A stretch of 45,782 bases of DNA from Candidatus Acidiferrum sp. Lineage in GTDB: Bacteria > Acidobacteriota > Terriglobia > Acidiferrales > UBA7541. This document shows, piece by piece, positions 9,715-42,933 of the stretch (position 1 is the stretch's first letter; each line of letters opens with the position of its first letter). The stretch lies in NCBI GenBank assembly GCA_036491775.1, contig DASXBH010000314.1, positions 1 to 45,782 on the forward strand, written 5' to 3'. The position numbers and the translations under genes are program-made. Under the pieces are notes generated by a model, which saw only the letters and a program-made list of their open reading frames with translations, was not told the origin of the DNA and made no database searches.

Positions 9715-10980
9715 TTATGCCTTGCTTGCTTGTTGAAGAACATCGTGTAAACGCTGCGCGACGATTGTGTCTTCCCCGGGCTGCAACATCCAAACACCGA
9801 CGACAATCGTATTAGCTCCGCCCGGCAATCCTGCACTTGCAGGAGCCCCGCCCGTGGATGGATTCAGCTCAATCCGCGGCTTGCCTCCGCGCATCTTTTG
9901 CATGACTTCAGCGCCCGTGATCTTGATTCGGCTCTGGTCGTAAGTGATGAGCAAGTGTGGAACATGGTTGGCAATTTCAGGAACGAAGATCTGAGTCTGG
10001 ACCGTCGGAATCCCGCTCAAGTGTTTGGCGATACGATCAGCCCTCTGTCGGCATTGTGCTTCAATCGCGGCATCATCCTGTTTGAGGAACCAGTCCACGG
10101 CAGCGACCAGACCTACGATCTCCTCTTTCGCCACCTTCATTCCGCGCCCAATCGTGTTTGAGTTCGGGGAATTATTTTTCCGGGCGGCGTCAATTAGATC
10201 CTTTCTTCCCAATAGCAAGCCGGTGCACTGCGGTCCGCGAAGTCCCTTTCCTCCGGAGAACGTCACCAGATCGAATCCCATCTCGGTGTATTTCCATAGG
10301 TTGGAAATTGGTGGCACATCCGCCGCAGCGTCGTTGAAACAAGGCACTCCATGTTTGTGCGCCACTCGCACCCAGTCTTCGCGGCTGATCTTCCCCGCAC
10401 CCGCATTGAAAAAGTGGGCCATGACTGTACGTTCGTTGAATGCCTGCTCGTATTGCTCGAGAGTTTCCACCTCCACAAAGAGAATGCCGCAATTACGGAG
10501 AGCGTGGTCATAGCCGTAGCGATGAGATTTCTGAACGATCACTTCATTCTTGAGTTCAGACATATCCGTTGGAATATCCAGAATGGGTTGATCGTTTCCT
10601 CTGGTGATGCATGCAGCTGTTCCTACCGCGAGTGCCGCGGCGGCGCCGGAGGTGACGAGAGCCGCTTCACATCGAAGTTTCCTGGCCAGATACACTCCTG
10701 ATGCATCGAGAAGCTCATTGAGATTTACCGGCCGTTTCGCTGCGAGTTCCACCGCCGCCCGTACTTCGTCTGGCATTGACGAGGCTGAAAGTACTGTATA
10801 GGTGCCGGCCGCATTGATAAACGGAGTTACCCCGAGCTTCTGGTAATAGTCCACGACTTTGGGCGCTGTTTTCGCTGATTCCTGAGCCTCCAGATTGGAG
10901 ATTCCAGAAAGCGCTACGCCGCCCACGACAACCGCCTGCGCTCCGTCTCGTAGAAGTTTTCTCCGACTCATCTGTCGCAT
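9715..10980 (-). CDS. SelA-like/DgaE-like PLP-dependent enzyme, paralog 1, Tat signal
   Basis: INAAGTYT, VTSGAAAAL, DAAAD and the PLP-lysine motif FSGGKGLRGPQ, plus RGMKVAKEEI. Start reassigned to ATG 10980 (GGAGGGA RBS), giving N-terminus MRQMSRRKLL. Confidence 0.85.
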   Translation of the reverse strand: MRQMSRRKLLRDGAQAVVVGGVALSGISNLEAQESAKTAPKVVDYYQKLGVTPFINAAGTYTVLSASSMPDEVRAAVELAAKRPVNLNELLDASGVYLARKLRCEAALVTSGAAAALAVGTAACITRGNDQPILDIPTDMSELKNEVIVQKSHRYGYDHALRNCGILFVEVETLEQYEQAFNERTVMAHFFNAGAGKISREDWVRVAHKHGVPCFNDAAADVPPISNLWKYTEMGFDLVTFSGGKGLRGPQCTGLLLGRKDLIDAARKNNSPNSNTIGRGMKVAKEEIVGLVAAVDWFLKQDDAAIEAQCRQRADRIAKHLSGIPTVQTQIFVPEIANHVPHLLITYDQSRIKITGAEVMQKMRGGKPRIELNPSTGGAPASAGLPGGANTIVVGVWMLQPGEDTIVAQRLHDVLQQASKA

Positions 10981-11020
10981 GATTAGTCCCTCCTTCGAAA
11001 GCAACGACTGCTGACCGAGT

Positions 11021-12379
11021 TCAGTCCCGTGGAAAATCGTCGGCTCTGGCCGGCACAGACTCCCCGCGATCCGGAGTCGTGAAATACTGCGGACGCGCTT
11101 TTTCCCACTCGACCATGCTGAGGCCGGAAGGATCGTAAGAAATGCGTCCTGCACGGATCGTCATGCGGGCCATCAGTCGTACATTGGCATCCATTTTGGC
11201 GACGCCGCAATCGATGTAGCCGAAACGACCCTTCATGAGTTCTAGAACCGCAATATCAGCATCTTTGCCTACGGACAGCGTACCCAGTTCCGGTCTGTGA
11301 ATCTCGCTTGCCGGATTCACCGTGGAGCGGCGAATGACATCGTCAAGGGGAACACCCATTGCTAAAAATTTGGACATGACGTTGTTCATGCTGACGGTCG
11401 TGTAATTTCCCGTATGCAAATCGGTAGAGATGGAATCTGGGATAAATCCCTGTTTCTCGGCTGGGACCGCATTACGAAACCAGAAACTGCCGCTTCCATG
11501 CCCGACATCAAAAATGACGCCGCGGGCGCGGGCCTCGGCGAGGGCGGGATTGAGTTTTCCGTCGGGAAGAATAATGGGAAATTGTTGAGCGAATACGTGA
11601 GTGTGAATGTCGCCCGGCCGCATTTTCTTGAGAATCAAGTCCTCGTAAGTTCTGTCCGGTCGCGGCCAGAAATCGTACATGACGGGAACATTCGCGAGCG
11701 TAGCGCATTCGATCGCACGGTCAACCGCACCCCAAGGCACGTGTTCCCCATCCCAGGGTTCCTTCGTCCAGTAGTGGGCAGTTTTTACTCCTACAATGAG
11801 GTCGGGATATCGTTTGATCGTGGCGGCGCAAAGCTTCGAGTCCATTTGATCCAGGCTCTGCTCGAGCCCACCGCTCATGCCGTTCGCGACGATATTCAGA
11901 AAGGCCAGGACTCGGACTTTGGCCCGGTCGATGACTTCTTCCTTCTCCATGAGAAATGTCTCAGCACCCGCGGTGCCGGCGTCCACGATTGTCGTCACGC
12001 CTGATTGCAATGCCAGATCGGCCGGAATTCCCAGGGGCAAAGCATGCGCGCGTGCTTCAGGCGCGAACCAGTTCAGGGGTGCGCCGCCATGGCCCACGTG
12101 GTAATGAATGTCGATGAGTCCAGGCGTGACATAGAGCTTGGATACGTCCACAACCTTGCCCGCCAGTTCAGCCGGGATGTTTTTTTCAACGGCCGCAATT
12201 TTTCCTTGGGAGACAGCGACGTCTCGCACGTCGTCAATGTGATTGGCCGGGTCAATTACATGACCGCCCTTTAGCAGCAGATCGTAATGAGGGGATTGCG
12301 CAGAAAGTACAACAGGAAATACGAAGGCGATTGCGACTACCACGATGACTGCGGGAAACATTTTTATCCAGCTCTGCAT
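11021..12379 (-). CDS. Secreted amidohydrolase/deacetylase-family metallohydrolase (COG3964, dihydroorotase-like)
   Basis: PGLIDIHYH, GVTTIVDAGTAG, VGVKT, PGDIHTH, FDVGHGSGSF, ISTDLH and GTLSVGKDADIAV. Start reassigned to ATG 12379 (GAGG upstream). Signal peptide ends VLSA-Q. Confidence 0.85.
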   Translation of the reverse strand: MQSWIKMFPAVIVVVAIAFVFPVVLSAQSPHYDLLLKGGHVIDPANHIDDVRDVAVSQGKIAAVEKNIPAELAGKVVDVSKLYVTPGLIDIHYHVGHGGAPLNWFAPEARAHALPLGIPADLALQSGVTTIVDAGTAGAETFLMEKEEVIDRAKVRVLAFLNIVANGMSGGLEQSLDQMDSKLCAATIKRYPDLIVGVKTAHYWTKEPWDGEHVPWGAVDRAIECATLANVPVMYDFWPRPDRTYEDLILKKMRPGDIHTHVFAQQFPIILPDGKLNPALAEARARGVIFDVGHGSGSFWFRNAVPAEKQGFIPDSISTDLHTGNYTTVSMNNVMSKFLAMGVPLDDVIRRSTVNPASEIHRPELGTLSVGKDADIAVLELMKGRFGYIDCGVAKMDANVRLMARMTIRAGRISYDPSGLSMVEWEKARPQYFTTPDRGESVPARADDFPRD

Positions 12380-12548: not shown

Positions 12549-13709
12549 ATGGATCGCCGTACTTTCGTCAAGGCGGGTTGCATTGGAAGCGCTTCGTTAT
12601 TGGTGCAGGGGCTGGATCCCTTGATCCGAGCAGATTCGGCTCCAGTTGCTGAGCCTCCCATCGAACTCCACGGGCTTACCGACTTCAAACCCTCGCCGCT
12701 GGGTATGCCGGGACTGTATCCGGCGCGTGTCGTCGAGATCCGCGAGGCGAAAGCGATCCTTAGTAACCGGGTTTCCCAGCCCATCGTGAGTCGGATGCTC
12801 GAGCGCGCAATGAAGGAACTGACAGGTGAGGGTTCCGCGCGGGACGCATGGGCCAAGTTTATTCAGCCGAGCGATGTAGTCGGAATCAAGATTAATCCAT
12901 CGGGAGCGCCGGCCTGTTGTTCATCCCCCGAGATCGTACGCGAGATCATCAGCTCCGTTCAGGCGCTCGGAGTTCCTGCAAAGAACATCGTTGTGTACGA
13001 TCGGTATTCTTACGAGATTGACCTCGGAAGTTATCAACCCTTGCTGCCTGCGGGGGTTCGAATCGTAGGTATCCAGGAAGCTTTTTCGAGCGGCGGCGGC
13101 TATGACTCGAATGTCTATTGTGACGCGAACTTTTTTGGAGAGTGGGAAACCCGCTCGTATATGGCGAGCATTGTAGTTCACGAAGTAACGAAGATCATCA
13201 ATGTGCCGACGATGAAAGACCACTCGGCTTCCGGTGTTACCGGGGCCCTGAAGAATCTCGCTTACGGCACGTTCAACAATGTGGCGCGTACGCATCGTGC
13301 ACCGCATTCCTTCACGAACCCTTTGATCGGATTGATGTGCACCGTCGAACCGTTACGGTCGAAATCTGTGCTGCACATCATGGACGGCATGCGGCAGGTC
13401 TGGCATGGAGGTCCCCTTACTCAAGTTCAGGAGTTTATTAATCAGGCAGGCATTCTTCTCGTAGGAACGGATCCTGTGGCAATGGACATCATCGAACTCG
13501 AGGCAATTGAGAAGACTCGTCGGGAGCGAGGCGCGCCTTCATTGTGGCAGCACGACTCGAAGAGCATCACCGCGGATAGTGATGAATTTCATCACGATGC
13601 TTCCAAGAATTTGTTCTATCGTCAGCCAGCACACATTGCGGCGGCTGGGCAGCTCGGGCTCGGCGTGGGAGACCTGAAGCAAATCGATCATCGTATCCTC
13701 TCTGTCTAA
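12549..13709 (+). CDS. DUF362-domain protein, Tat signal
   Basis: MDRRTFVK signal. Motifs DVVGIKIN, IINVPTMKDH..GVTGALKN and GTDPVAMD. Confidence 0.8.
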   Translation: MDRRTFVKAGCIGSASLLVQGLDPLIRADSAPVAEPPIELHGLTDFKPSPLGMPGLYPARVVEIREAKAILSNRVSQPIVSRMLERAMKELTGEGSARDAWAKFIQPSDVVGIKINPSGAPACCSSPEIVREIISSVQALGVPAKNIVVYDRYSYEIDLGSYQPLLPAGVRIVGIQEAFSSGGGYDSNVYCDANFFGEWETRSYMASIVVHEVTKIINVPTMKDHSASGVTGALKNLAYGTFNNVARTHRAPHSFTNPLIGLMCTVEPLRSKSVLHIMDGMRQVWHGGPLTQVQEFINQAGILLVGTDPVAMDIIELEAIEKTRRERGAPSLWQHDSKSITADSDEFHHDASKNLFYRQPAHIAAAGQLGLGVGDLKQIDHRILSV

Positions 13710-13714
13710 TTCGA

Positions 13715-14767
13715 ATGATGAGAGAAACAGATAATTCCAAAACTGGTAGAGACTGGCCTACCCTGCTCAACGATAACGCTCGCACGGGAGGGCAGGGGCT
13801 GCGTCCAGCGCACTCGCCAGAACGAGCTGTTTGGCAGTTTCGCGCCAGCAGTTCAGTGCGTTCGGCACCGATTCTCGAGGACGGCATTCTGTACGTCGCT
13901 TCCGTTTCGGGTGCACTGCACGCGATTCGTGCCGATACGGGCACTGCAAGTTGGAAATTTCAGGCCGCTGGTCAGATACATTCCACTCCATCGCTGTTTG
14001 CAGACCAAATTCTGTTCGGATCCGATGACGGCAAAGTGTACTCACTCGACCGGCGGAACGGAACGAAGCTGTGGGAGGCTCCGACCGGAGCTGAAGTGTG
14101 GACGTCTCCCGTGATCCGGAACGGAGTTGCGTTTTTCGGAAGCGCGGACGCACAGGTCTATGCGGTCGACGCGACAACCGGCAGGAAACGTTGGACGAAG
14201 GAGCTCGCTGGACGAATCTATTCCACAATCTACGCGGCCGAGCAGCAACTCTATCTCGGGTGCGGAGATGGAAAAGTTTATTGCCTCGATTCTTCGTCCG
14301 GGAAAATATTGTGGAGTTCGCCGACCGGCAACGGCATCGATTCGTCACCGTCCGTAGTTGGCGATTTGGTTCTGATCGGCTCAGAAGATTTTTTCTTCTA
14401 TGCGATGAGCGCGACCACAGGACAGCTGAGCTGGAAGTACGAGACAGGGTTGGGCATCGCGTCTTCGCCCGCCGTTTGGAACGACCTGACGGTTTTCGGC
14501 AGCAAGGATGGTTTTCTCTACGCGCTTGAAACTCAAACCGGGAAGTTGCGGTGGAAGACAGCGGTCGGCGAAGTAGTGACCGCGCCTCCCGTGATTGGCG
14601 ATGGAGTTGTTTGCATCCAGGCAGGTGCTACGTTTGCATTGGACATCGCCTCTGGCAAGGTTGTATGGAGGGCGGCTCTTGCGGGCGCAATCCAATCCGT
14701 ACCGGTGCTGGCGGGCGAGACCATTTATCTGGCGAGCCTGAGCGGTGAGGTTTATGCGCTGCGATAA
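13715..14767 (+). CDS. PQQ-like/BamB-like beta-propeller repeat protein, no evident signal peptide
   Basis: About eight repeats of SSPxV..FGSxDGxxYALDxxTGxxxW. Confidence 0.85.
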   Translation: MMRETDNSKTGRDWPTLLNDNARTGGQGLRPAHSPERAVWQFRASSSVRSAPILEDGILYVASVSGALHAIRADTGTASWKFQAAGQIHSTPSLFADQILFGSDDGKVYSLDRRNGTKLWEAPTGAEVWTSPVIRNGVAFFGSADAQVYAVDATTGRKRWTKELAGRIYSTIYAAEQQLYLGCGDGKVYCLDSSSGKILWSSPTGNGIDSSPSVVGDLVLIGSEDFFFYAMSATTGQLSWKYETGLGIASSPAVWNDLTVFGSKDGFLYALETQTGKLRWKTAVGEVVTAPPVIGDGVVCIQAGATFALDIASGKVVWRAALAGAIQSVPVLAGETIYLASLSGEVYALR

Positions 14768-15761
14768 GCGACCAATCGCAATGCTGATTGCCTTCTGCTT
14801 AGTCGGCTCTCTCATCCACAGTTCAGACAATCGAGCTCTGGTTTACAAAAAGAAGTATGTCATGGGTACGGTCTTCGAAATCGCTGCCTATGACAACTCC
14901 TCGGAACATGCCGCCAATGCAATCGAGAAGGCGTTTCAGGAGGTCGTTCGCCTCGATGATCTGATGAGCAACTACAAACCGGAGAGCGCCCTGAGCAAGC
15001 TGAACCGCTCCGGCCATTTTCATGAAGAGGAAGTTCCGTCCGACTTGTATCGCGTCATTGAGCAGGCCGTGCAGTTTTCAAGACTGTCCGATGGAAAATT
15101 CGATATCTCCGTGGCGCCGCTCGTGAATTTGTGGAAGGCTGCGCTGCGTGGTGAAAGCACACCTTCTCGGGCACAGGAAGAGGAGGTTCGAAACTGCGTC
15201 GGCTACGAAAAGATCGAATTGACTCCGCCTGACCGAATCAGTTTTCGTTCTTCCTGTTTGCAGCTAGACTTGGGCGCCATTGGGAAAGGGTATGCTGTGG
15301 ATCGGGCTGCTGAAGTCCTGCACTCCCTGAGTATCAACGATGCCGTGGTCAATGGGGGTGGCAGCACCATATTCGCGATGGGGGCGCCTCCCGGCCAGAA
15401 AGGCTGGCTTATCCACCTGCGAGATCCCTCCAACAAGGTGGATCCGCAGGTCCTACTCAAGGATGAAAGCGTTTCCACATCAGAGCAGACGGGGCCTAGT
15501 TTGCTGGGAAATGATTCACCCGGGCACATCATCGATCCGGACACAGGAGTTCCACTGAAAACGGAGTTCGCCGTCAGCGTGGTTTCGAAAACCGCAACGG
15601 AATCGGACGGTCTTTCAACAACGCTTTTACTTCTTGGTCCGACGAAGGGCAGGGCACTGATCAAGGGCAGGGCGGATGCCTCCGCAGTTTGGATTTCCCA
15701 TGATGCGCAAGTGGAGACCGTAATCGGCGGCCGGCAGATTCTTTTTGGCAGAAGGGAATAG
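14754..15761 (+). CDS. apbE: FAD:protein FMN transferase (ApbE family)
   Basis: MGTVFEI, MSNYKPESALSKLN, SDGKFDISVAPLVNLW, LDLGAIGKGYAVD, HIIDPDTG and SDGLST. ATG 14754 follows GAGG and overlaps the upstream gene. Confidence 0.88.
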   Translation: MRCDKRPIAMLIAFCLVGSLIHSSDNRALVYKKKYVMGTVFEIAAYDNSSEHAANAIEKAFQEVVRLDDLMSNYKPESALSKLNRSGHFHEEEVPSDLYRVIEQAVQFSRLSDGKFDISVAPLVNLWKAALRGESTPSRAQEEEVRNCVGYEKIELTPPDRISFRSSCLQLDLGAIGKGYAVDRAAEVLHSLSINDAVVNGGGSTIFAMGAPPGQKGWLIHLRDPSNKVDPQVLLKDESVSTSEQTGPSLLGNDSPGHIIDPDTGVPLKTEFAVSVVSKTATESDGLSTTLLLLGPTKGRALIKGRADASAVWISHDAQVETVIGGRQILFGRRE

Positions 15762-15780
15762 TGGTTCCGACTGGGCAATT

Positions 15781-17211
15781 ATGAGCATTCGTAACAGGAT
15801 CCTCGCAGGGGCCTTCGTGCTCGTCTGCAGTTCCGCGTGGTGCAATGTCTTCGTACATTGGACAAGTTCTACTGTCCCGCCCGTCGCGGAACTGGGCATG
15901 AACAATCTGGTGCTCTCTTGGAACGAGAACGTTTCGGCTCAGGTGAAGGCAGCTCGGAAGCAAGGCTATCAAGTGTATGTCGAAGTTCCGCTTGATCAGG
16001 CTACAGGCGTGGCCGAAACCGCGAGCGGACTGGCAGGGATTATCCTCCGCGCTCCTGCCTCCAAAAGTGGCGAGCTAGAAAAATCTTTGCCGAAACTGCA
16101 ATCGGCTCACCCCAAGCTCAGGTTTGTCGTTCTCGACCCCGATGGCAAGCGGCCGGAAATGCGCGGAAGTCTCGTGATCAAGCGTAACTCTGTGCTCGAG
16201 GTATCGAGTCCCACCGCTCAACCGTGGATTGACAGCAATCTCGCTCTCGTGAAGGTTGAACAACGGTCGAATCCCGCACAGGTTCCGATGTATACCTTTT
16301 CGTGGGGAGGAGATTCCGGCCAGCAACAGCCAGCACTCACAGCGGAAGATTACTCCCTGGCGGTGGCTGAGGCGGGTGCCTGTCATGCGGATTTAATGCT
16401 GGAGCTTGAGGACCGCTTGCAGAAAGGCCTCATCGATCATGATCCGCAAGCCCGAGCACTCTGGAGACAGGTGCGATCTTACGCAGGCTTCTACTCACAC
16501 GCTGCCGAGCAAGCGATGGAAGCTGCCGCCACGGTCGCTGTCGTAGTTGACGATTTCGATCCGAGTGACGAAGTCATGAACCTTCTGGCTCGTCACAACA
16601 TTCCGTTCCAGGTTCTGCGTCCTGCAGACTTGCAATCGGCTGATCTGAGAGGCTTCGATGTGATAGCTGTGTTCGCGAAGCCCGACAGGCCGGCGTGTGA
16701 ACGAATGGGCGAGCTTGCAAAGCTGGGCAAAACCGTCGTACTGGTGGACGCGCACGGTTCTTATCCGTGGCAGAACGATCAGCCCGTTCGCGTGAATGAG
16801 CACGTACTGTCCTATGCCGTTGGGAAAGGGAAGGTGCTTGAGCTCGCAGAACCTGTCACTGATCCCGAAACGTTTGCCCAGGACATTCGCAGGCTGCTGG
16901 GAACGCAAAACGTCCTGATGAATCTCTGGAATGGATTGACTACGATTGCGGTGCCGTACCGTGAGCACAGCGGAACCGTAAAGGTGCTCGAGCTAATCAA
17001 CTACTCCGGAGATCCGCTTCGGCTGCAAGTGCAAGTTAAAGGAACGTTCGCTTCCATCCGCTACGAAACAGCGGGACATGCATGTTGTGAGTCTCTGGTC
17101 CCCGTAAAACACAACGGATTTACCGAATTCGTGATTCCGGAACTACAAATTGCAGGACGCGTCCATCTTGAGGCCAACCCAGGGCCTGATTCCCAACCCA
17201 GTCCCAGGTAA
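15781..17211 (+). CDS. Secreted hypothetical protein
   Basis: Long ORF in operon position with signal peptide MSIRNRILAGAFVLVCSSAWC. The C-terminal part (LLARHNIPFQVL, VGKGKV, LINYS) loosely recalls glycosidase trimerisation/GATase-like domains. Confidence 0.7.
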   Translation: MSIRNRILAGAFVLVCSSAWCNVFVHWTSSTVPPVAELGMNNLVLSWNENVSAQVKAARKQGYQVYVEVPLDQATGVAETASGLAGIILRAPASKSGELEKSLPKLQSAHPKLRFVVLDPDGKRPEMRGSLVIKRNSVLEVSSPTAQPWIDSNLALVKVEQRSNPAQVPMYTFSWGGDSGQQQPALTAEDYSLAVAEAGACHADLMLELEDRLQKGLIDHDPQARALWRQVRSYAGFYSHAAEQAMEAAATVAVVVDDFDPSDEVMNLLARHNIPFQVLRPADLQSADLRGFDVIAVFAKPDRPACERMGELAKLGKTVVLVDAHGSYPWQNDQPVRVNEHVLSYAVGKGKVLELAEPVTDPETFAQDIRRLLGTQNVLMNLWNGLTTIAVPYREHSGTVKVLELINYSGDPLRLQVQVKGTFASIRYETAGHACCESLVPVKHNGFTEFVIPELQIAGRVHLEANPGPDSQPSPR

Positions 17212-31878: not shown

Positions 31879-31892
31879 GACACCCTCGCGTC

Positions 31893-33256: not shown

Positions 33257-34147
33257 CTAATCTTCCTCACCGCTCAACGGAATCCGCGATCGTACGGCGA
33301 GGATGTAGGCCTTGGCTCCCGGCTTGTTCTGGTTGTAGAACCCCACCGTACAGTTTGGGCGGAAGTAGTAAGCATCTCCGGCTTTGGCCGGATAGCGGCC
33401 TTCAACTCCATCGATTCCGCTTCCTGCGACCATTTCACCCTGACCCTCAACCACTAGATAGATTTCTTCCGCGGTTTCGTGGTGATGCGGCAAGTTTGTA
33501 CACCCGGGCTCGAAGTTCATCCAGAAAAAGCTGGTCACTACGTACGCCTCATCGATCGCGTCACGCTTCCCGCCGCGTGGACCGACCAGCAGTTTGTAGA
33601 GGACTGAAGTTGGGTGACCTTCGACAGTTTCCTCTTTCACGTCGTTCAGATTGATGATTCTGGGATGTTGAGAGGATGCGCTAAGCGCGCTGCGGGACGG
33701 AATCTTGAAGCCCATAACCAGGACTCGCAAGCCCTGACTGGAATTGTTGGCGATCGAATGCTTGACACCGGGAGCCAGGTACACGAAATCGTTCGCACGC
33801 AGGGGATGCGTCTCGTCGCCATATTGCAGAGTGCCCGTGCCCTGCAGAACAAAATCAATCTCTTCTTCACGGTCGTACAGAACATCTTGACACTTGCCCT
33901 GAGCGTCAACCGAAACTTCCGCGAAACGAGACACACTTCGCAGGATTCGATTGTCCGCATCACCTGCTCCGAAGATTGGCTTGTAGTGGCAGGTTCCCGA
34001 GGATAGATCGGTTTTCGTCTCGCCCAGACTCGGCAGATATCGATGCAGCCAAGTGGCGTCGACATTCCGATCTTGGGCCGCGAGATCCGAGACCAGTAGC
34101 AGGAGCAGCAAGATCCTGCAGTTCTTTCCCCTGAGAGGTATGCTCAC
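33257..34147 (-). CDS. Secreted bicupin (two cupin domains) protein
   Basis: Domain 1 has EEEIDFVLQGTG..LAPGVKHSIAN and domain 2 has HHHETAEEIYLVVEGQG..AGDAYYFRP. Hydrophobic signal LLLLLLVSDLAA-Q. Start reassigned to GTG 34147 (uncertain). Confidence 0.72.
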   Translation of the reverse strand: MSIPLRGKNCRILLLLLLVSDLAAQDRNVDATWLHRYLPSLGETKTDLSSGTCHYKPIFGAGDADNRILRSVSRFAEVSVDAQGKCQDVLYDREEEIDFVLQGTGTLQYGDETHPLRANDFVYLAPGVKHSIANNSSQGLRVLVMGFKIPSRSALSASSQHPRIINLNDVKEETVEGHPTSVLYKLLVGPRGGKRDAIDEAYVVTSFFWMNFEPGCTNLPHHHETAEEIYLVVEGQGEMVAGSGIDGVEGRYPAKAGDAYYFRPNCTVGFYNQNKPGAKAYILAVRSRIPLSGEED

Positions 34148-34311
34148 AATTTCTGTCCGCTTGCGAACGCTGGTATACCACAGAATCTGCTTGACGCAAA
34201 TCGGAATCTTTCGTTTTATTAGGATTCGTTTTGTTTGCAATCGAGGTTTTGCGAGGAAGTTCTGCGTGCTACTCTCAACCGCGCAGCCGTTGTCCCCATG
34301 GAAGAGCGATC

Positions 34312-35733
34312 ATGACACTTCATGCTATGCGCTTGGATCGACTGCGAATCGTCTGGGTGGGATTTGTTGTACTCGCCATCGTGGCGACGTTGAGCTTCTC
34401 CCCGGCATTCGCTCAATCAAATCCGCCGAAAAGTACAGTCTGCCGCGTCGACGCGGTCGAATATAAGGGCTGGCATGCGCAGCAACTCTCGAACCAATGG
34501 CTCCAGTTGATTGTCGTGCCGCAGAACGGTGGCCGGCTGATGCAAGTGATCTTTGCCGGACACCCTTACCTGTTCGTAAATCCTAAATTCGCTGGCCAGT
34601 ACTTCCCCCCGAGTTCCAGTCAGTGGTTCAATTACGGCGGCGACAAGCTCTGGCTTTTGCCCGAGGGAAACAACGATGAACAACATTGGGCTGGCGACTC
34701 TGACTTGTTAGACGATGGGCCGTTCACCTTTCGAAAGCTTTCGGAAGGGCAGAGTTGTGAGATCGAATTGACGGGGCCCTCTGACCCGCAGACTGGCATT
34801 CAATTCATCCGGACCATTCAATTGGGTGCGGATTCGCCGCGCATCCGATTTCATGCGTCCATGAAGAACATCACCGGCCACACACTGGAATGGTCAATGC
34901 AGTCGGTCTCGCAATACGACACTTCGGTTTCCGGCACACGGGGCGCGGAACACGCCGCGCAGATGAATCCTGATTTCTGGACCTTCACTCCGGCGAACCG
35001 ATCCAGCAGTTATCTCAACCGCTACCACGTTCGCTTCGGTCCGGCGGAAAATCCGGCAGTTTCGGTAAGGGACGATAATCTTTTCGCCGTACACTACGTT
35101 CACATGGCTGCTGAGTTGTGGCTCGATTCGACAGAAGGTTGGCTGGCGGTCGTCGACGGAAATACGCAGTATGCCATGGTCGAGCGCTTTCAATATGACG
35201 TGAGCAAACCTTACCCTGGCAAGGCTTCCGTCATTTTCTGGACGAACGGTCCGGAAATTAGACTTAAGAGTGATGGCAATCCATCGCTTAGCTCTGACCC
35301 GGATGCGAGTCCTTACTATCTCGAAGCCGAGATCAATAGTCCTATGTGCCGCTTGCGTCCGAATGAGAGCTGTAGCTTTGAGACAGAGTGGTTTCCTACG
35401 CGATCAGGAAGTGAATTCCATGGCGTGACAGACGCTGGAATTGTGATACGCCCATTGCTGGCGACAGGCGTGGAAAATGGCAAGATTAAGTTGTCCGGCT
35501 CATTCGGAGTTTTCTATTCCGGGCGTGTGATCGCCCGCCTTTACGATGAGCACGGACGCAGTGTCGGGACTGCGCCGGTTGTCGAGGTAGATCCAAGCAA
35601 GGCGGTTTCACTGGACACGGAGATTAGTCCCGCAACAAAAGCCGCACGCCTCTCGATCCACCTCGTAGACGAAAGCGGAACCGACCGTGGAGCCCTTCAG
35701 GAAGTTCAAGTGGGCAACCAAGTCAATCACTGA
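34312..35733 (+). CDS. Secreted DUF4380-like (galactose-mutarotase-like fold) protein
   Basis: LIVVPQNGGRLMQ, WFNYGGDKLW and YLEAEINSP. Signal peptide ends PAFA-Q. Start reassigned to ATG 34312. Confidence 0.6.
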   Translation: MTLHAMRLDRLRIVWVGFVVLAIVATLSFSPAFAQSNPPKSTVCRVDAVEYKGWHAQQLSNQWLQLIVVPQNGGRLMQVIFAGHPYLFVNPKFAGQYFPPSSSQWFNYGGDKLWLLPEGNNDEQHWAGDSDLLDDGPFTFRKLSEGQSCEIELTGPSDPQTGIQFIRTIQLGADSPRIRFHASMKNITGHTLEWSMQSVSQYDTSVSGTRGAEHAAQMNPDFWTFTPANRSSSYLNRYHVRFGPAENPAVSVRDDNLFAVHYVHMAAELWLDSTEGWLAVVDGNTQYAMVERFQYDVSKPYPGKASVIFWTNGPEIRLKSDGNPSLSSDPDASPYYLEAEINSPMCRLRPNESCSFETEWFPTRSGSEFHGVTDAGIVIRPLLATGVENGKIKLSGSFGVFYSGRVIARLYDEHGRSVGTAPVVEVDPSKAVSLDTEISPATKAARLSIHLVDESGTDRGALQEVQVGNQVNH

Positions 35734-35734
35734 T

Positions 35735-37366
35735 ATGAAACGGAACGCTGCAATCACTCTCTTCCTGCTCGTCGCATGTACGCAATCGCTCATTGCACAA
35801 GAATTACGGACCTCGGGGCCTTTGGCACCACGAGTGAAGGCAGAAGACTTGCTGACAACTCCCGTGAGCGAGAACTGGCCCTCTTATAACGGAGACTACA
35901 CCGGACGCCGCTTTAGTAGCCTGCGCGAAATTAACAAGGCGAACGTTCGCCAAATGCGCGCGGCCTGGGTTTTTCACCCGGGCAATTCGCAAAGGCTGGA
36001 GGCCACTCCAGTGGTGATTCGCGGCGTCATGTACGTGACTTCCGCGAACGATGTATTCGCGCTGGATGCCCGAACCGGACGGACTCTGTGGCATTACAGT
36101 CGTCCCGTAAGTTCGGGATTGCTGGACGATGCGGCAGCCCACAAAAACCGCGGCGTGGCCGTCTGGGACAATTTTGTCTACTCCGAAACCGACGATGCCC
36201 ATTTGCTCTGCCTCGATGCCCGCTCGGGAAATCTGATATGGGATGTCCAATACGCGGACAAGGTGAAGCACTATGGCGCGACCAGCGCTCCGCTTGTCAT
36301 CAAAGATGAAATAGTCGTCGGCACGTCTGGTGGGGATTCAGGAGTGCGGGGGTTCCTGGCTGCCTACGATGCGGCCACCGGGAAACTGAGGTGGCATTTA
36401 TGGACCATCCCGGGCCCTGGGGAATTCGGTTCTGACAGTTGGCCGGGAGATTCGTATTTGCACGGTGGTGGCACCACCTGGATGCCCGGTACTTACGACC
36501 CGGAACTCGATACGCTGTATTGGACCACCAGCAACGCCGCGCCCGATTTCGTCGGGGATTCGCGGCCCGGGGATGACCTTTACACCGCCTGCGTCCTGGC
36601 AATCGACGCCAACACGGGAAAATTGAAATGGTACTTCCAGTTCACACCCCACGACCTATACGACTACGATGCCAATGAAACTCCGGTGTTGGTCGATGCA
36701 GATGAGAATGGCACGACGCGTCACCTGTTGGTACAAGCCGACCGAAACGGTTTTTTCTATGTCCTCGATCGCACGAGCGGTAAGTTTCTGCGGTCTACCC
36801 CCTTCGTAAAAAAATTGAACTGGGCTACAGGAATCGATGCCTCCGGTCGTCCCGTTTTATCGGACCGGATACCGACGAAGGAAGGCATCTATATTTGTCC
36901 CGGCGTCGTTGGTGCCACGAATTGGTTTTCGCCATCGTACAATCCCAACTCCGGATTGTTTTACGTGATGGCTCTGGAGAGCTGCAGCCTTTATTTCGCG
37001 AAGTCGACGCCGTTCACTCCGGGCGAGACCTACTACGGCACTGGAACTAAATTTCCCAGCGGTGAACGTTCACAGAAAATCTTGTTGGCACTCTCTGTTT
37101 CCGACGGGAAAGAGGTTTGGCGATATCCTCAGGCCGGCCGGGGCAATTCGTGGGGAGGAACTCTCACAACAGCAGGTGGACTGCTGTTTTTTGCAGATGA
37201 TACCGATTCCTTCGAAGCGGTGGACGCGGAAACGGGCAATCCCCTCTGGCATTTCAATACGGGCCAATCATTCAGTGCGTCCCCAATGACTTATGCGGTG
37301 GACGGGGTGCAGTATGTCGTGATTAGCGCCGGGAGCGACGTGTTCAGCTTCGCGCTTCCACACTGA
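35735..37366 (+). CDS. Secreted PQQ-dependent dehydrogenase-family protein (acidobacterial quinoprotein type)
   Basis: WPSYNGDY..RFSSL..IN, EATPVV..GVMY, GATSAPL, GVRGFLAAYDA, GGTTW..YDPE, WYFQFTPHDLYDYD, CPG..GATNW..SY and ASPMTYAVDGVQYV. ATG 35735 directly follows the upstream stop. Confidence 0.88.
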   Translation: MKRNAAITLFLLVACTQSLIAQELRTSGPLAPRVKAEDLLTTPVSENWPSYNGDYTGRRFSSLREINKANVRQMRAAWVFHPGNSQRLEATPVVIRGVMYVTSANDVFALDARTGRTLWHYSRPVSSGLLDDAAAHKNRGVAVWDNFVYSETDDAHLLCLDARSGNLIWDVQYADKVKHYGATSAPLVIKDEIVVGTSGGDSGVRGFLAAYDAATGKLRWHLWTIPGPGEFGSDSWPGDSYLHGGGTTWMPGTYDPELDTLYWTTSNAAPDFVGDSRPGDDLYTACVLAIDANTGKLKWYFQFTPHDLYDYDANETPVLVDADENGTTRHLLVQADRNGFFYVLDRTSGKFLRSTPFVKKLNWATGIDASGRPVLSDRIPTKEGIYICPGVVGATNWFSPSYNPNSGLFYVMALESCSLYFAKSTPFTPGETYYGTGTKFPSGERSQKILLALSVSDGKEVWRYPQAGRGNSWGGTLTTAGGLLFFADDTDSFEAVDAETGNPLWHFNTGQSFSASPMTYAVDGVQYVVISAGSDVFSFALPH

Positions 37367-37385: not shown

Positions 37386-38348
37386 TCAGTGTTCTAAGTA
37401 AGGCACAAAGCCCTGTGTCTTTGTTGGAAGACGGTATACCGATGTGGTTGCCGTGATGTAAAGCGTCCGGTAGTCCTTGTCTCCCCAAGTCAAATTGGCG
37501 GGCTGTTCCGGGGTAACAATCGTTCCCAGGTGATTTCCCTTCGCATCCCAAACCCAGATACCCTTGGGCCCTGTGACAAACAAATTGCCATTCTTATCCA
37601 CCTTAATGCCGTCCGGAACACCGTCGTTCTTTCCGCCCGGTTCTTCGCCGAAAATACGCCCATTGATGAAAGTTCCATCGGCACTCACGTCGTAGACGCG
37701 AATGTTTCGCTGGTCGCTATCGTCCACATAAAATTTCTTGCCATCCGGGGAGAAGGCCAAGCCGTTCGGTTGCGTCAGATCGCGGGTCAGCAAGCGGACG
37801 TTTCCTGTGTCGTCCAGCCGGTACACGCCTTGAAACGGGATTTCCTGCTTCTCCCCCGCAACCAGATCGAGGGTTGGATCGGTGAAATACAGTGCGCTAT
37901 CCGGTCCCACGATCACATCGTTCGGACTGTTGAAGCGCTTTCCGTCGTAGTGATCTGCAAGTACCTTATATTTCCCGTCCGGAGTTACCTCGATGATGGC
38001 TCTCAAGACGCTCGCACAATCGATCAAACGATGTCGGCGATCAAACGTGTTGCCATCCGGATCGCCCAACGCGATTACTTCTTCCTTCTTGCCGTTGGGA
38101 TACACCCGATAAATCTTGTTAATCGTCTCGTCGCTGACGTAGAGAAAACCCTCTGGATCCCACATCGGCCCTTCGGTGAAGCCGAACCCGGTCGCAACGG
38201 TTTCCAGCTTCGCGCCGCCGCCAATCAGTTCCAGGAACCTCGGAGAGAGCGGCTCAAGCTTAAACTCCCTGATTTTCTGGCCGGAAAGACTCATCGCCAG
38301 ACAGATTACGGCGACGAACTGAAGCAGAATTTTCTGCCCGAGGCTCAT
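37386..38348 (-). CDS. Secreted SMP-30/gluconolactonase family protein
   Basis: FTEGPMW, FNSPND, LYFTDP, PNGLAFSPD, PDGIKVD..GNL and LYITA. Signal peptide present. The start overlaps the cytochrome c stop (ATGA). Confidence 0.9.
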   Translation of the reverse strand: MSLGQKILLQFVAVICLAMSLSGQKIREFKLEPLSPRFLELIGGGAKLETVATGFGFTEGPMWDPEGFLYVSDETINKIYRVYPNGKKEEVIALGDPDGNTFDRRHRLIDCASVLRAIIEVTPDGKYKVLADHYDGKRFNSPNDVIVGPDSALYFTDPTLDLVAGEKQEIPFQGVYRLDDTGNVRLLTRDLTQPNGLAFSPDGKKFYVDDSDQRNIRVYDVSADGTFINGRIFGEEPGGKNDGVPDGIKVDKNGNLFVTGPKGIWVWDAKGNHLGTIVTPEQPANLTWGDKDYRTLYITATTSVYRLPTKTQGFVPYLEH

Positions 38349-39190
38349 TCAGTATCGTCCTCTTCTTTGCGGGAAGTTCTTGCCTTGCTCGCATTCGGAG
38401 TGGCACTCATCAAATAACTGACGAGATCGTCGAGTTCACGCGGGCCAAGACGCTCGCCATAGTTTGTTGGCATGAGAGAGCCCTGGAGACGATCGAGACC
38501 TCGCAATTCCGATTTCTGAAAGAAATGGAAGGCGCCATCTTTGGTTTGGAACTGAACAGAGAAGTTGTCTTCGTTGCGGATCAAGCCCTCTAGCCGATCA
38601 CCCGCGCTTGTAGTAAGCACAGCCGGCCGGTAGCCCTCGGGCGGTAATCTTTGCGACCTGACGATCTCCCCCCGAATCGCCTTGCTTGGGGCGCTTGCTC
38701 CGTAGCCAGACAGATCGGGTCCAAGGAAACCGCCTTGCCCGGAGATCGTGTGGCAACTTGAGCATTCGCCTTTGCCGAAGAAAATCTCCTTCCCGCGTAT
38801 CGCATTGCCGGGTAGAGTTTGCGCCACAGTCTTTCCCTGGAGTGACCGCAAGTACGAGACTACGGCGCGGGTCTGCTGTGCACTAAGGCTATGAAAAGCG
38901 GGCATGTCGGTTCCGGGTACACCGTTTGAAATGATGTCGGACAGTTGAGCATCGGAGAGATGCCGGACTTTGTCGCTTTCAGAAATGTTGATAGCTTTGT
39001 CGCTTCCGCGGCCATCCAGTCCGTGGCACCCCGCGCAGGCAGAGTTGTATGTGCTTCGCCCCGGTTCGCGAGTAACCTTCGTATGGTTTGAAGAAGAATT
39101 TTGTTGTCCGAGCGAGAAGGAGGGGTTGAAGGCCCACAGAAGGAGACAGAGTCCGAGCAGTGGAAGTAGCGATTTTCGGATCGCAAGCAT
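38345..39190 (-). CDS. Dihaem c-type cytochrome
   Basis: Two haem motifs, CAGCH (with distal GTDMPAF) and CSSCH (GPDLS...SLMP). Signal peptide from MLAIRKSLLPLLG. ATG 39205 is an alternative start. Confidence 0.85.
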   Translation of the reverse strand: MLAIRKSLLPLLGLCLLLWAFNPSFSLGQQNSSSNHTKVTREPGRSTYNSACAGCHGLDGRGSDKAINISESDKVRHLSDAQLSDIISNGVPGTDMPAFHSLSAQQTRAVVSYLRSLQGKTVAQTLPGNAIRGKEIFFGKGECSSCHTISGQGGFLGPDLSGYGASAPSKAIRGEIVRSQRLPPEGYRPAVLTTSAGDRLEGLIRNEDNFSVQFQTKDGAFHFFQKSELRGLDRLQGSLMPTNYGERLGPRELDDLVSYLMSATPNASKARTSRKEEDDTE

Positions 39191-39375
39191 TTGCACGCGC
39201 CACATTGTATCGCAATGGAGCGGGGCTCCTCGGAATGGCTTTCTGTGATTCTTACACAATGGAAATCTCTTCCCACCGAGGCACGGTTCCTTTAAATTCG
39301 ACAAGCACCCCGATCGCAATGTTCGGCACGCTGTAGTGTTAACGTCCGCGAACACGTAAGAAACAGGAGGAACGA

Positions 39376-40158
39376 ATGCATCTCTATCGCCCGTATTCGA
39401 AGAAACACATCTTCGTAATCATTGCCGCATTGATCTTGATTCCGGCAGCGGCGGTCCAAGTCCGTCTGTCGCACGCGCAGTCCACTTCAGGGACTGAAAA
39501 CGCTCTGACTCACGACGAACTGATCGCGCAATTCCGGCGCGTGGAAGTCGCCTCGGTTTCCGATGCGCTTGAGCAGATTACCGGAAAGCGGATGTACATG
39601 AGCCATCATATGCAGCCGATCTTTACGGCCAAATTTGCGGGGTATGCGCGAACGGTACAACTCAAAAAAGACGAGGGCAACAAAGATCCTGAAGCACTGA
39701 CGGGGATGCTAGAAGCGATTGATCAAGGCTCGACGGATTCGGTGTACGTGATGGTGGTTGAGGACGGAGAAGACATCGCTGGAATGGGCGGACTGATGGG
39801 CACCGCGATGGCCGCGCGTGGTTACGCCGGAGCGGTGATCGATGGCGGAGTACGAGACGTAGCCTATCTGCGCAAGATCGGCTTCGCGGTTTTTGCCACG
39901 GGAATTGTCCCCTCCACCTCTGTGCACCACTACCGCTTTGCCGGCGCGCAGGCCCCGGTGCTGTGCAACGGTGTGACCGTGAACCCTGGCGATATTGTTG
40001 TCGCCGATAGCGATGGCGTCGCCGTAGTGCCGAAAGCACAGGCACAAGGGGTGCTCACACTGGCGCAGCAAATGGATTACAAAGAGCACTCAATGTATGC
40101 GGTCATCGAGCAACTAAGGTCCATCGTGCAAGCAGTCAAGAAATTCGGCCGCCTTTAA
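39376..40158 (+). CDS. RraA/HMG-aldolase family protein with signal peptide
   Basis: VSDAL, FAGYARTV, GMGGLMG, VIDGGVRD and VNPGDIVVADSDGV. AGGAGG RBS and a hydrophobic N-terminus ending SHA-Q. Confidence 0.87.
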   Translation: MHLYRPYSKKHIFVIIAALILIPAAAVQVRLSHAQSTSGTENALTHDELIAQFRRVEVASVSDALEQITGKRMYMSHHMQPIFTAKFAGYARTVQLKKDEGNKDPEALTGMLEAIDQGSTDSVYVMVVEDGEDIAGMGGLMGTAMAARGYAGAVIDGGVRDVAYLRKIGFAVFATGIVPSTSVHHYRFAGAQAPVLCNGVTVNPGDIVVADSDGVAVVPKAQAQGVLTLAQQMDYKEHSMYAVIEQLRSIVQAVKKFGRL

Positions 40159-40199: not shown

Positions 40200-40225
40200 T
40201 CGGCACTTTCATTTTGTCAGCCTCT

Positions 40226-41077
40226 ATGAACGGTCGTCCCAAACGTAATTACGACATTACCGCTCTTCAGCGTGGGTTGCGGCTGCTGCATCTTTTTAGC
40301 GAATCGCCGCAGGGACTTACTGCGAAGCAGGTGGCGGCTTTGTCGCGGCTGCCCGTGAGCACGGTTCACCGCTTTCTGGCCAACCTGGTTACTGCAGGCT
40401 TCTTGAACCGCGATGGAGAGGGCACCCATCACCTCGGAATCGCATGTTTTTCTATTGGACAGGCCGCCGTCGGGCAGCTTGATATCCGACGCTTGAGCCT
40501 GCCCTATTTGCGGGAACTGAACCAGCAAACCCGCGAAACCATCCACCTCACCGTGCGGCACGGATTGTCCGCCGTGTATGTGGAAAAACTGGACTCTCCC
40601 GAACCGCTGCGCATTCATTCACGGATTGGCGCGTCAGTTCCACTGAACTGTACCGCCGTTGGCAAGGTCATGCTGGCCTATATGCCGGAAGACGAACGGG
40701 ATCGGGTTCTTCCCAAGCTCGACTTGAAACGTCTGACTCCAAATTCGGTGGGGAATGTTCAGGAGCTCAAAACGGAGTTGTACCGTGTCCGCAAGAATGG
40801 ATACGCGTGTGACATGGAGGAGCACGAGTTGCACATTCGATGTGTGGCTGCTCCGATATGGGATCACACGGGAAGCGTGCAAGCGAGCCTCAGCATCACT
40901 GCACCCACTCTCCGCATGCCGGTGATGCGGCTTCGCCGGCTAGCGCCGATTATCCAGGCGGCGGGGATAAAGATCTCGGCTGAGCTTGGGTATCAATCGC
41001 CTGTATCTCCATCGCCATGGCCAGCGTTAAATCGGAACGGTAAAACGGAAGCCAGGCTTGGAAAGATGGCTGTCTGA
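40226..41077 (+). CDS. IclR-family transcriptional regulator
   Basis: ALQRGLRLL, LPVSTVHRFL..L...GFL, TRETIHL, CTAVGKVMLA, RKNGYA.D.EE and RCVAAPI. TTG 40214 is an alternative start. Confidence 0.93.
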   Translation: MNGRPKRNYDITALQRGLRLLHLFSESPQGLTAKQVAALSRLPVSTVHRFLANLVTAGFLNRDGEGTHHLGIACFSIGQAAVGQLDIRRLSLPYLRELNQQTRETIHLTVRHGLSAVYVEKLDSPEPLRIHSRIGASVPLNCTAVGKVMLAYMPEDERDRVLPKLDLKRLTPNSVGNVQELKTELYRVRKNGYACDMEEHELHIRCVAAPIWDHTGSVQASLSITAPTLRMPVMRLRRLAPIIQAAGIKISAELGYQSPVSPSPWPALNRNGKTEARLGKMAV

Positions 41078-41148: not shown

Positions 41149-41658
41149 ATGAATTTGACCTCGACTCGAAGGACATTTGCGATCCGATTCGGTTCGCTTC
41201 TATCAGCTCTCGGGCTCACTGCCGCAGTGCTGCCCTCCCGCGGAGCGGCACAGAGTTCCGCCCAGGATGCGAACGCCATTCGTAAGCTGAACGCGGAAGG
41301 CAAGCCCGGCAGCGAAAAAGACGTCATTATGCCGGTGATTGTTCATAACGGTTTGATTTATGTCTCCGGTCAAGGCGCGCACGACACGCGCGATCAGAAA
41401 GAATGGACCATCGAATCCCACACCACCAAGGTCATGGACCAAATCAAGAAACTCGTAGAAGTTGGCGGAGGGACGATGGACAGCGTCCTCCAAACCAATG
41501 TTTTCCTGGTGAAGATCGAGCACTGGGACGCGATGACCAAGGTATTCGGGAGCTATTTCCCTCGCGGAGGACCCTCCCGCACGACTGTCGCCGTGGCCGC
41601 GCTGCCAGGAGATTCGCTGGTGGAAATCAATTGCATCGCGGCCGTCAGCCGCAAGTAG
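41149..41658 (+). CDS. RidA-family protein with Tat-like signal
   Basis: TRRTFA plus a hydrophobic stretch ending GAA-Q. Motifs GLIYVSGQ, NVFL, PSRTTV..LP..LVEI. AAGGAG RBS. Confidence 0.85.
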   Translation: MNLTSTRRTFAIRFGSLLSALGLTAAVLPSRGAAQSSAQDANAIRKLNAEGKPGSEKDVIMPVIVHNGLIYVSGQGAHDTRDQKEWTIESHTTKVMDQIKKLVEVGGGTMDSVLQTNVFLVKIEHWDAMTKVFGSYFPRGGPSRTTVAVAALPGDSLVEINCIAAVSRK

Positions 41659-41673
41659 GCAAAGGAGATTCTC

Positions 41674-42933
41674 ATGCGACTCAAATCGTCGTGGAATCGG
41701 CGCGGATTTCTAGGAACAGCCGCCGCCATGGCAGCGTCTGTCTTTGCGCCGCGGAGGCTTTTTTCGACCGCGACGCCGCCGTCCGGCGGGAGCACTGCCG
41801 TCAGCGGTTTCGGCCAGAGCGGCAATCCCTACGACGAACTGGGCGTCACCACCGTCATCAACTGCGAAGGCACGATGACGATGCTTGGCGGCTCTGTTCT
41901 TCATCCCGAACTCGAGGCAGTCATGGCTATGGCTGGACGCCATTTCGTGAACGTCCCAGAACTGGAGGTCGCCGCAGGGAAACGGATTGCAGAAATGCTG
42001 AAGCTTCCCGATGGCTACACCGCGCTGGTCACTTCCGGTGCGGCTGCGGCAATTCAATCTGGATTGGCAGGCATTCTCACCGGTAACAACGAAGCGTTGA
42101 TCCGGCAACTTCCCGATCTGACCGGAATGAAGTCGGAAGTCATCATTCAGAAATCGCATCGCAACCCATTCGATCATCAGTTGCGCTCCACCGGCGTGAA
42201 GCTGATCGAGATTGAAACTCGCGAGCAGTTTCGGCAAGCCGTGAATGACCGTACAGCCATGATGCACTTTTCAAACTTTGCCAACGCCGCTGGCCAAATC
42301 AAAGTGGACGAGTGGGCTAAGTTGGCCAAGCAATACAACATTCCGTGCATGAACGATGCCGCCGCAGACACGCCCCCGGTTTCGCACCTTTGGGATTACA
42401 CCAACATGGGGTATGACCTGGTTACTTTCAGCGGCGGCAAGGCGATGCGCGGGCCGCAATGCGCGGGCCTGCTCATCGGGCGTAAGGATCTCGTGGCCTA
42501 TGCCTTGCTGAACAACAGCCCGCATGAGGACACGCTGGGCCGCAGCCAGAAAGTGGGCAAAGAAGAAATTGTCGGAATGGTGAAGGCGCTCGAACTCTAT
42601 CTCGGCGAAGATCACGACGCGCTGACTCGAGAATGGCAGGCCCGCCTGGAGCGAGTCTCGCGCGAGTTGACCAAGGTTCCGGGAGTGACCACATCGTTTT
42701 TTGTTCCTGACATTGCCAATCATGTACCCCACATGCAAATCACGTGGGATTCCAAAGTCTCACTTGAGCCGCAGCAAGTTTCGAAATTGCTGCGGAATTC
42801 CAAACCAGCAATTGTCATCGGCGGCGGCGAAGGCCGCCCCGGGCTCACCATGTGCTCATTTATGTTGCAGCCGGGCGAAGACAAAATCGTTGCCGAGCAA
42901 TTGTCGCGCATCCTGCGCGAGCACTCAGCTTAA
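41674..42933 (+). CDS. SelA-like/DgaE-like PLP-dependent enzyme, paralog 3, Tat signal
   Basis: NRRGFL signal. INCEGTMT.LGGS, VTSGAAAAI, DAAAD, FSGGKAMRGPQ and KVGKEEI. AAGGAG RBS. Confidence 0.87.
   Translation: MRLKSSWNRRGFLGTAAAMAASVFAPRRLFSTATPPSGGSTAVSGFGQSGNPYDELGVTTVINCEGTMTMLGGSVLHPELEAVMAMAGRHFVNVPELEVAAGKRIAEMLKLPDGYTALVTSGAAAAIQSGLAGILTGNNEALIRQLPDLTGMKSEVIIQKSHRNPFDHQLRSTGVKLIEIETREQFRQAVNDRTAMMHFSNFANAAGQIKVDEWAKLAKQYNIPCMNDAAADTPPVSHLWDYTNMGYDLVTFSGGKAMRGPQCAGLLIGRKDLVAYALLNNSPHEDTLGRSQKVGKEEIVGMVKALELYLGEDHDALTREWQARLERVSRELTKVPGVTTSFFVPDIANHVPHMQITWDSKVSLEPQQVSKLLRNSKPAIVIGGGEGRPGLTMCSFMLQPGEDKIVAEQLSRILREHSA

Follow-up and report, generated by a model that had tools for sequence, protein, structure and literature searches.

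A family of DgaE-like PLP enzymes with conserved twin-arginine leaders in Candidatus Acidiferrum: candidate periplasmic ammonia-lyases for unphosphorylated amino-aldonates

A 45,782-nucleotide stretch of DNA from Candidatus Acidiferrum sp. (contig DASXBH010000314.1 of GenBank assembly GCA_036491775.1; the whole stretch is hereafter the window) carries three paralogous genes for pyridoxal 5'-phosphate (PLP) enzymes, each beginning with a twin-arginine translocation (Tat)-type leader. From their sequences, we infer that the encoded proteins, which would be exported folded and with the cofactor in place, may be ammonia-lyases that act in the periplasm on unphosphorylated 2-amino-2-deoxy-aldonates, e.g. 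D-glucosaminate. Export via Tat is highly probable, ammonia-lyase chemistry is likely, and amino-aldonates are only a little less likely to be the substrates; taken together, these three estimates therefore leave the proposal as a whole at about an even chance. What is likely to be new is the compartment: the chemistry is known from DgaE and the Ong pathway, both cytoplasmic, and would here be placed in the periplasm, for which the Tat-exported PLP enzymes PvdN and PtaA offer a precedent.

The three genes (paralogues 1, 2 and 3; Table 1) had been located in an earlier note made from the letters of the window alone, and they are intact open reading frames (ORFs), to which we can add that they lie on the minus, minus and plus strands, respectively. 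The sequence AGGAG precedes the ATG in each case, in keeping with the ribosome-binding site (RBS)-supported starts described there, and the products are 38–46% identical in pairwise comparisons. Their leader motifs (SRRKLL, SRRSFVK and NRRGFL) and the FSGGK-x3-GPQC lysine motif are all present and near-invariant within the respective orthologue sets, as are DAAADxPP and ANHVPH in paralogues 1 and 3, as against DDAAG and GNRYPT in paralogue 2. Each paralogue has near-invariant loops of its own, which read NC[EQ]GTMT/QKSHR/ANHVPH or NAAGTYT/QK[GS]HR/ANHVPH in the orthologue sets of paralogues 1 and 3, and NCRGTWT/GGRS/GNRYPT in that of paralogue 2, where GGRS replaces QKSHR in 120/120 sequences, i.e. 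the histidine of the latter motif is never present. The closest named homologues come from Terriglobia (Acidobacteriota) and are often labelled Ca. Sulfotelmatobacter. Two earlier claims need amending: the host genome, a bin that is 82% complete, holds five members of the family rather than three, the others being the C468 paralogue (67% identical to paralogue 3) and the C1 paralogue (83% identical to paralogue 2); and, of the three separate operons proposed, those of paralogues 2 and 3, although distinct transcription units, belong to one conserved cluster, a paralogue 2 gene being found within 8 kb of paralogue 3 in 19 of the 80 loci described below.

The case for export is built on the leaders. 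Each has a Z-R-R-X-hydrophobic-hydrophobic motif near its supported start (the Tat consensus used is that given in the accessible text of PMC13673990), and each also shows the combination of RR and an uncharged h-region. Among the best homologues, the RR pattern is found in 119/119 for paralogue 3, 115/119 for paralogue 1 and 120/120 for paralogue 2, the four paralogue 1 homologues that lack it having starts beyond the motif; across the host genome, 40/621 long RBS-started ORFs show this pattern, and the conservation of the leaders thus appears to be more than chance. Both arginines are invariant across orthologues while several flanking positions vary, and starts downstream of them are weak and poorly conserved. 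Moreover, the host genome encodes TatC, and in an AlphaFold model of paralogue 3 (pLDDT 91), residues 1–33 are unstructured, with pLDDT <50. Together with the division of the family into members with and without leaders (see below), these observations favour the Tat export predicted in the earlier note. The accompanying remark that exported PLP enzymes are uncommon is fair; nevertheless, Tat export of a PLP enzyme is rare rather than unprecedented, as PvdN and PtaA of Pseudomonas are PLP holoenzymes known to be exported folded by Tat (PMC6206403, PMC13673990). These share with the paralogues the predicted mode of export, but belong to other families and serve in siderophore tailoring rather than catabolism, and no RidA partner is reported for them in the accessible text of these sources.

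The paralogues belong to a large, conserved and uncharacterized family, whose members go by database names such as 'L-seryl-tRNA selenium transferase' and 'aminotransferase class V' (7135 matches among 7999 scored candidates). Clustering at 50% gave 150 representatives, 100 of which were full-length and were kept, the remaining 50 being fragments. Leader length is bimodal among the 100: 45 have at least 25 residues ahead of the catalytic core, 40 of these with RR, and 55 start at the core itself. In a tree built from the core only, the leader being excluded (110 rows; FastTree and a quick IQ-TREE run under LG+G4, with SH-aLRT support), 51 leaderless rows, including two annotated DgaE proteins, one Rhizobium protein and one haloarchaeal protein, lie behind a branch with an SH-aLRT value of 95, and outside it lie all 46 Tat rows and 13 rows without RR. 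The leader label changes 11 times on this tree, compared with 35 times for shuffled labels, with FastTree giving a similar result, and each of the window paralogues belongs to a well-supported subclade of its own. The distribution is patchy, with the family in 35/60 genus relatives and in 16/150 other genomes of the phylum (the latter count including the unpublished G048). Tat-bearing members are found in Acidobacteriota, Bacteroidota and others, the Bacteroidota evidence consisting of one named plasmid and metagenome contigs. In the literature searched, which left out most subscription journals and supplements, no account was found of the Tat-bearing family or of a periplasmic RidA.

Leaderless relatives in Rhizobium adjoin a leaderless RidA and an ABC transporter. 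A separate subfamily (P0148, P0154 and P0185; L158:13845-15443 and L159:7932-9527) has a C-terminal extension of ~120 residues; the idea that this is a fused RidA was rejected, as it has no Pfam match. In a plasmid cluster of Rhizobium gallicum, a leaderless member of the extended subfamily is accompanied by phosphoenolpyruvate mutase.

As to enzyme class, a fold search returned Cap15 first (8T7J; TM score 0.77), then DgaE (7LC0; 0.76), with SelA at 0.52–0.57. All three paralogues score 158–175 bits with TIGR01437 (cut-off 385) and 130–149 bits with the DgaE model NF047797 (cut-off 600), and 21–53 bits with the SelA model TIGR00474 (cut-off 267.9). The SelA/DgaE-like label given earlier therefore holds for the DgaE-type fold and the PLP lysine but not for SelA, nor do the proteins reach the DgaE cut-offs or retain its signature residues. 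Identity with SelA, the selenocysteine synthase, was rejected on the TIGR00474 scores and on the separate canonical selA carried by 40/40 genus relatives (including the unpublished G218); the homology is distant and accounts for the database names. In the host itself, selD is present at G000:C498:5601-6569 on the minus strand, with an in-frame TGA that is likely to encode selenocysteine; a canonical selA was not found in the 82%-complete bin, and ARAGORN gave no tRNA-Sec.

DgaE and the paralogues have in common the fold (26% identity), the PLP lysine in its SG[AG]K motif, the RxMKxxKE motif (in its general form RxxKxxKE), the equivalent of R242 and the arginine of GRK (226). They would also share β-elimination of a 2-amino-aldonate, and the amidohydrolase next to paralogue 1 has its like in some dga-like clusters. 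What sets the paralogues apart, besides the Tat leader and the RidA partners, is a series of losses: the His162/His163 pair is missing from all three, and the positions of R301, R332 and R346 are occupied by H/N/W in paralogue 1, T/L/M in paralogue 2 and H/G/F in paralogue 3. In the docked model of DgaE in the 2022 paper from which these roles are taken (PMC9529869), the substrate phosphate sits at Arg301, Arg332 and Arg346, and the carboxylate near Arg226; the PLP lysine is numbered 217 in the accessible text and falls at 213 by sequence, which casts some doubt on the numbering. Loss of the phosphate arginines supports unphosphorylated substrates for the paralogues. According to the same source, His163 protonates the enamine, the H163A variant releases it and RidA is named as the remedy. 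Neighbours of the DgaE type, namely, a phosphotransferase system and DgaF (the 2-keto-3-deoxy-6-phosphogluconate aldolase), are absent from the window.

The partner genes are those described in the earlier note: a deacetylase for paralogue 1, a triple-Rid protein and a cupin for paralogue 2, and RidA and a major facilitator superfamily (MFS) transporter for paralogue 3. The larger point, absent from it, is that these neighbours bear export-type leaders as well: judged from the sequences, hydrophobic N-termini are found on the deacetylase, triple-Rid, cupin, DUF4380, quinoprotein, lactonase and RraA-like proteins. The Rid partners have a PF01042 domain in which the arginine of the PAR/PSR motif is present. 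This arginine has a catalytic role; Rid proteins act on imines and enamines, not on amides, and RidA is a trimer. The triple-Rid protein, also found at L259:7779-9059 on the minus strand, is likely to be a single-chain mimic of that trimer, the single-domain RidA having a putative Tat leader instead. A second single-domain RidA with a Sec-type leader, on the other strand and divergent from the RraA gene, is found at L070:3292-3765 (minus) and in ~30 similar loci, and is absent from the window.

Conservation of these associations was assessed in 80 paralogue 3 loci from GTDB (81–93% identity, flanks up to 8 kb). The MFS transporter is found in 78, RidA in 75, the RraA-like protein in 73, the quinoprotein in 66, cytochrome c and lactonase in 57 each, the IclR regulator in 51, DUF4380 in 37, the NagB-like protein in 34, the second RraA in 20, the cupin in 13 and the triple-Rid in 8. 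RidA directly adjoins paralogue 3 in 72/80, and an RR leader is seen in 71/72 of its N-termini. KduD-like genes recur in 9 loci and ManD genes in 4, and around the C468 paralogue the order, which hints at the product, is RidA (RR), PLP enzyme (RR), MFS transporter, a kinase gene resembling that for 2-keto-3-deoxygluconate (KDG) and eda. Of the 7 genus loci that are closest (L129-L135), 6 have the deacetylase next to paralogue 1, an arrangement not seen in 7 more distant ones (L136-L142); linkage of paralogue 1 to paralogues 2 and 3 within 30 kb is seen in 1/5 genomes checked, the distance being 229 kb in another. Further afield, Chondrinema litorale (Bacteroidota) has SusC/D, RidA (RR), PLP enzyme (RR), deacetylase and RraA, preceded by a Tat-type lactone oxidase, and Granulicella tundricola has TonB, RraA, PLP enzyme (RR), RidA (RR), a further PLP enzyme (RR), deacetylase and lactonase (RR). 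In 78 distant metagenome loci, many of them short and with GC contents of 38–72%, RR is present in 81/93 family ORFs and 30/34 Rid ORFs; Rid genes occur in 31 loci, the deacetylase in 25, RraA in 11 and lactonase in 9.

In the pathway that we envisage, an amino sugar (N-acetylglucosamine, glucosamine or an epimer) would enter through TonB-dependent receptors and be oxidized by the quinoprotein with the cytochrome c, whereupon the lactonase would open the ring of the oxidized sugar and the amidohydrolase would remove the acetyl group. The PLP enzyme would then eliminate the C3 hydroxyl outside the inner membrane, where substrates carry no phosphate, and, because the DgaE-type His163 is missing, the enamine would leave the enzyme, to be hydrolysed by the co-exported Rid proteins to the 2-keto-3-deoxy acid and ammonia. 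Either the DgoT-like MFS transporter would bring the keto-deoxy acid into the cell for KdgK and Eda, or the exported RraA-like aldolase would cleave it outside. Elimination would erase the stereocentres at C2 and C3, such that gluco- and manno-substrates both yield KDG and galactosaminate yields 2-keto-3-deoxygalactonate; it would therefore be sensible for several paralogues to feed one downstream route. It is plausible that the paralogues differ in substrate stereochemistry and split epimers between them, as each has its own invariant active-site motifs; these loops fit distinct specificities but do not name them.

Much of this logic has a parallel in the Ong pathway of Pseudoalteromonas prydzensis (PMC9537276), in which, according to the accessible text, unphosphorylated N-acetylglucosaminate is converted to glucosaminate (GlcN1A) and then to KDG by the deacetylase OngB, the PLP deaminase OngC and the RidA protein OngD, which is required, followed by KdgK. 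The TonB receptor, RidA and KdgK are shared; the differences are that OngC is of fold type III and predicted to be cytoplasmic, OngB is D-aminoacylase-like and the transporter belongs to the solute:sodium symporter (SSS) family, whereas here the enzyme is of fold type I and most components have export leaders. The OngC-type domain PF14031 was not found in the 82%-complete host genome, and the paralogues match fold type I. For haloarchaeal chitin use, a DgaE homologue with a RutC/Rid neighbour has been proposed, phosphorylation being assumed in the accessible text (PMC12343721).

Two other assignments of function are unlikely, to about the same degree. In the first, the proteins would be exported β-eliminating deaminases acting not on sugar acids but on β-hydroxy (D-)amino acids such as D-Ser, D-Thr and hydroxy-Asp, or on N-acylated versions of these. 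The RidA pairing suits serine/threonine-type elimination, OngC is stated to deaminate D-Ser and D-Thr besides GlcN1A in the part of PMC9537276 that is accessible, the substrate of Cap15 is itself a β-hydroxy amino acid, and D-aminoacylases are among the weak structural relatives of the amidohydrolase; against this, the neighbours are sugar-oriented (lactonases, quinoprotein, mutarotase-like protein, DgoT-like MFS transporter, NagB-like protein, KdgK, Eda, KduD, ManD, SusC/D and glycosidases). The second, equally doubtful, has exported paralogues of mixed chemistry: a lyase alongside C2 epimerases or retro-aldolases, or O2-dependent decarboxylating oxygenases resembling Cap15 and PvdN, with the resulting amide hydrolysed by the amidohydrolase. 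Cap15, an O2- and PLP-dependent monooxygenase-decarboxylase of capuramycin biosynthesis (PMC7497351, PMC6411801), heads the fold search (24–25% identity) and its K262 and K265 have matching lysines in the paralogues; paralogue 2 is closer to it by sequence (E 1e-34) than to DgaE (2e-29) and lacks the QKSHR histidine; PvdN, itself a Tat-exported PLP enzyme, performs such chemistry; and the best PDB match of the amidohydrolase, 8JE0, is labelled 'Amidase'. Cap15 is, however, phosphate-dependent and keeps the DgaE-type phosphate arginines of the small domain that the paralogues have lost, acts on glycyluridine in an antibiotic pathway and lacks a RidA or sugar-acid context. Moreover, paralogues 2 and 3 adjoin Rid proteins, the substrates of which are not amides. 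The weakest notion, that the leaders are non-functional and the proteins, in line with their database names, cytoplasmic enzymes like DgaE or SelA, draws on the 'selenium transferase' annotations, TIGR01409 scores below cut-off, weak alternative starts and the presence of selD without a canonical selA in an incomplete bin, but is made very improbable by the invariance of RR amid varying flanks, the incomplete retention of those starts, the low TIGR00474 scores and the separate SelA of the genus relatives.

Several observations nevertheless weigh against periplasmic amino-aldonate lyases. The twin-arginine model TIGR01409 matches the three leaders at 13.8, 14.7 and 15.8 bits, just below its cut-off of 16.7, and the RidA leader has no match to it and also misses the stricter RR pattern; paralogue 3 has a weak alternative start at codon 19 and paralogue 2 has one at codon 45, albeit kept in just 63% and 81% of homologues, respectively; and the leaders of the partners were judged from hydropathy and by eye alone. 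A single origin of the Tat group has a support value of just 67, with 12 rows on that side lacking RR. Cap15 is structurally as close to the paralogues as DgaE is. Histidine occupies the 163 column in 10/52 leaderless relatives; most of these also lack it, so the loss is not specific to exported members, and its rarity among them marks DgaE as a specialized branch. The 80 loci are close kin and not independent, KdgK-like and Eda genes are found in a minority of them (15/80 and 10/80, respectively) and just 4/80 have the deacetylase gene within 8 kb of paralogue 3. Finally, no lytic polysaccharide monooxygenase, a candidate source of the oxidized sugar, was found in the 82%-complete host genome.

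Table 1. Features of the window (positions in nucleotides; leaders are predicted)
Feature	Position	Strand	Remarks
Second RraA-like protein	62..748	plus	Frame open towards contig start
Paralogue 1 (P0002), PLP enzyme	9715..10980	minus	421 aa; DgaE/Cap15 fold; Tat leader SRRKLL
Amidohydrolase/deacetylase family metallohydrolase	11021..12379	minus	PRK09237 over cut-off; hydrophobic Sec-type leader; directly upstream of paralogue 1
Divergent unit: DUF362 (RR leader), pyrroloquinoline quinone (PQQ)-type beta-propeller, ApbE flavin transferase, unknown exported protein	12549..17211	plus	
Triple-Rid chain	30625..31878	minus	Sec-type leader; PAR motif in each repeat
Paralogue 2 (P0003), PLP enzyme	31893..33176	minus	427 aa; Tat leader SRRSFV(K); divergent active-site loops
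Bicupin	33257..34240	minus	Hydrophobic leader
DUF4380/weakly mutarotase-like protein	34231..35733	plus	Hydrophobic leader
PQQ-type quinoprotein dehydrogenase	35687..37366	plus	Acido-empty-quinoprotein-like, below cut-off; leader
SMP-30/gluconolactonase	37386..38348	minus	Leader
Di-haem cytochrome c	38345..39355	minus	
RraA-like (HMG/CHA aldolase family) protein	39376..40158	plus	Sec-type leader
IclR/KdgR-like regulator	40214..41077	plus	
RidA (P0004)	41149..41658	plus	Twin-arginine leader TRRTFA
Paralogue 3 (P0001), PLP enzyme	41674..42933	plus	419 aa; Tat leader NRRGFL
MFS transporter	42852..44288	plus	Closest to D-galactonate transporter DgoT and sialin; start likely downstream of 42933
NagB-like glucosamine-6-phosphate deaminase homologue	44296..45126	minus	Below cut-off

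Beyond these features, the stretches 778-9702 and 18326-30333 of the window encode two TonB-dependent receptors, three tetratricopeptide repeat (TPR) proteins and two ASPIC/UnbV FG-GAP proteins, one of them RR-led, as well as GH9-like, DUF5107 and CBM9-like proteins, a setting for glycan uptake of the kind typical of Acidobacteriota. Another contig of the same genome (L259; G000:C1) carries the block TPR–TonB–triple-Rid–paralogue 2–DUF4380–quinoprotein (compare window positions 24860-37366) a second time. The host genome also contains pqqC. The DUF362/PQQ-propeller/ApbE unit, which may serve periplasmic electron transfer, is found next to family members in distant taxa as well (ApbE in 6/78 and DUF362 in 5/78 of the metagenome loci). 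It is unusual for RraA-like proteins to be exported; homologues of the second one carry a Sec-type leader in complete loci (L066, L123). A promoter and terminator scan gave results at chance level, and an expression search found only 5 runs, with a fraction of 0.05–0.09 of the sampled words, the contigs being mostly <90% alike.

These results offer a concrete, testable function for proteins that carry the above database names by the thousand, and for a trait that is abundant in soil Acidobacteriota and found also in Bacteroidota; cultured hosts of the family are available in Granulicella tundricola MP5ACTX9 (plasmid pACIX902) and Chondrinema litorale. If the proposal is correct, the nitrogen of amino sugars would be mineralized in the periplasm at no cost in ATP, with implications for cross-feeding and the soil nitrogen cycle. 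RidA, regarded as a damage-control enzyme of the cytoplasm, would then be active beyond that compartment as well. A possible, though still doubtful, extension is that soil Acidobacteriota and Bacteroidota harbour a complete, phosphate-free periplasmic catabolism of amino sugars, comprising oxidation, lactone opening, deacetylation, PLP-dependent deamination, clean-up by RidA and an aldol cleavage that yields pyruvate and glyceraldehyde, the Tat-exported paralogues sorting epimers. Were this so, RidA and the RraA-like aldolases would both have a periplasmic role, and ammonia from chitin- or cell-wall-derived sugars would be freed outside the cytoplasm.

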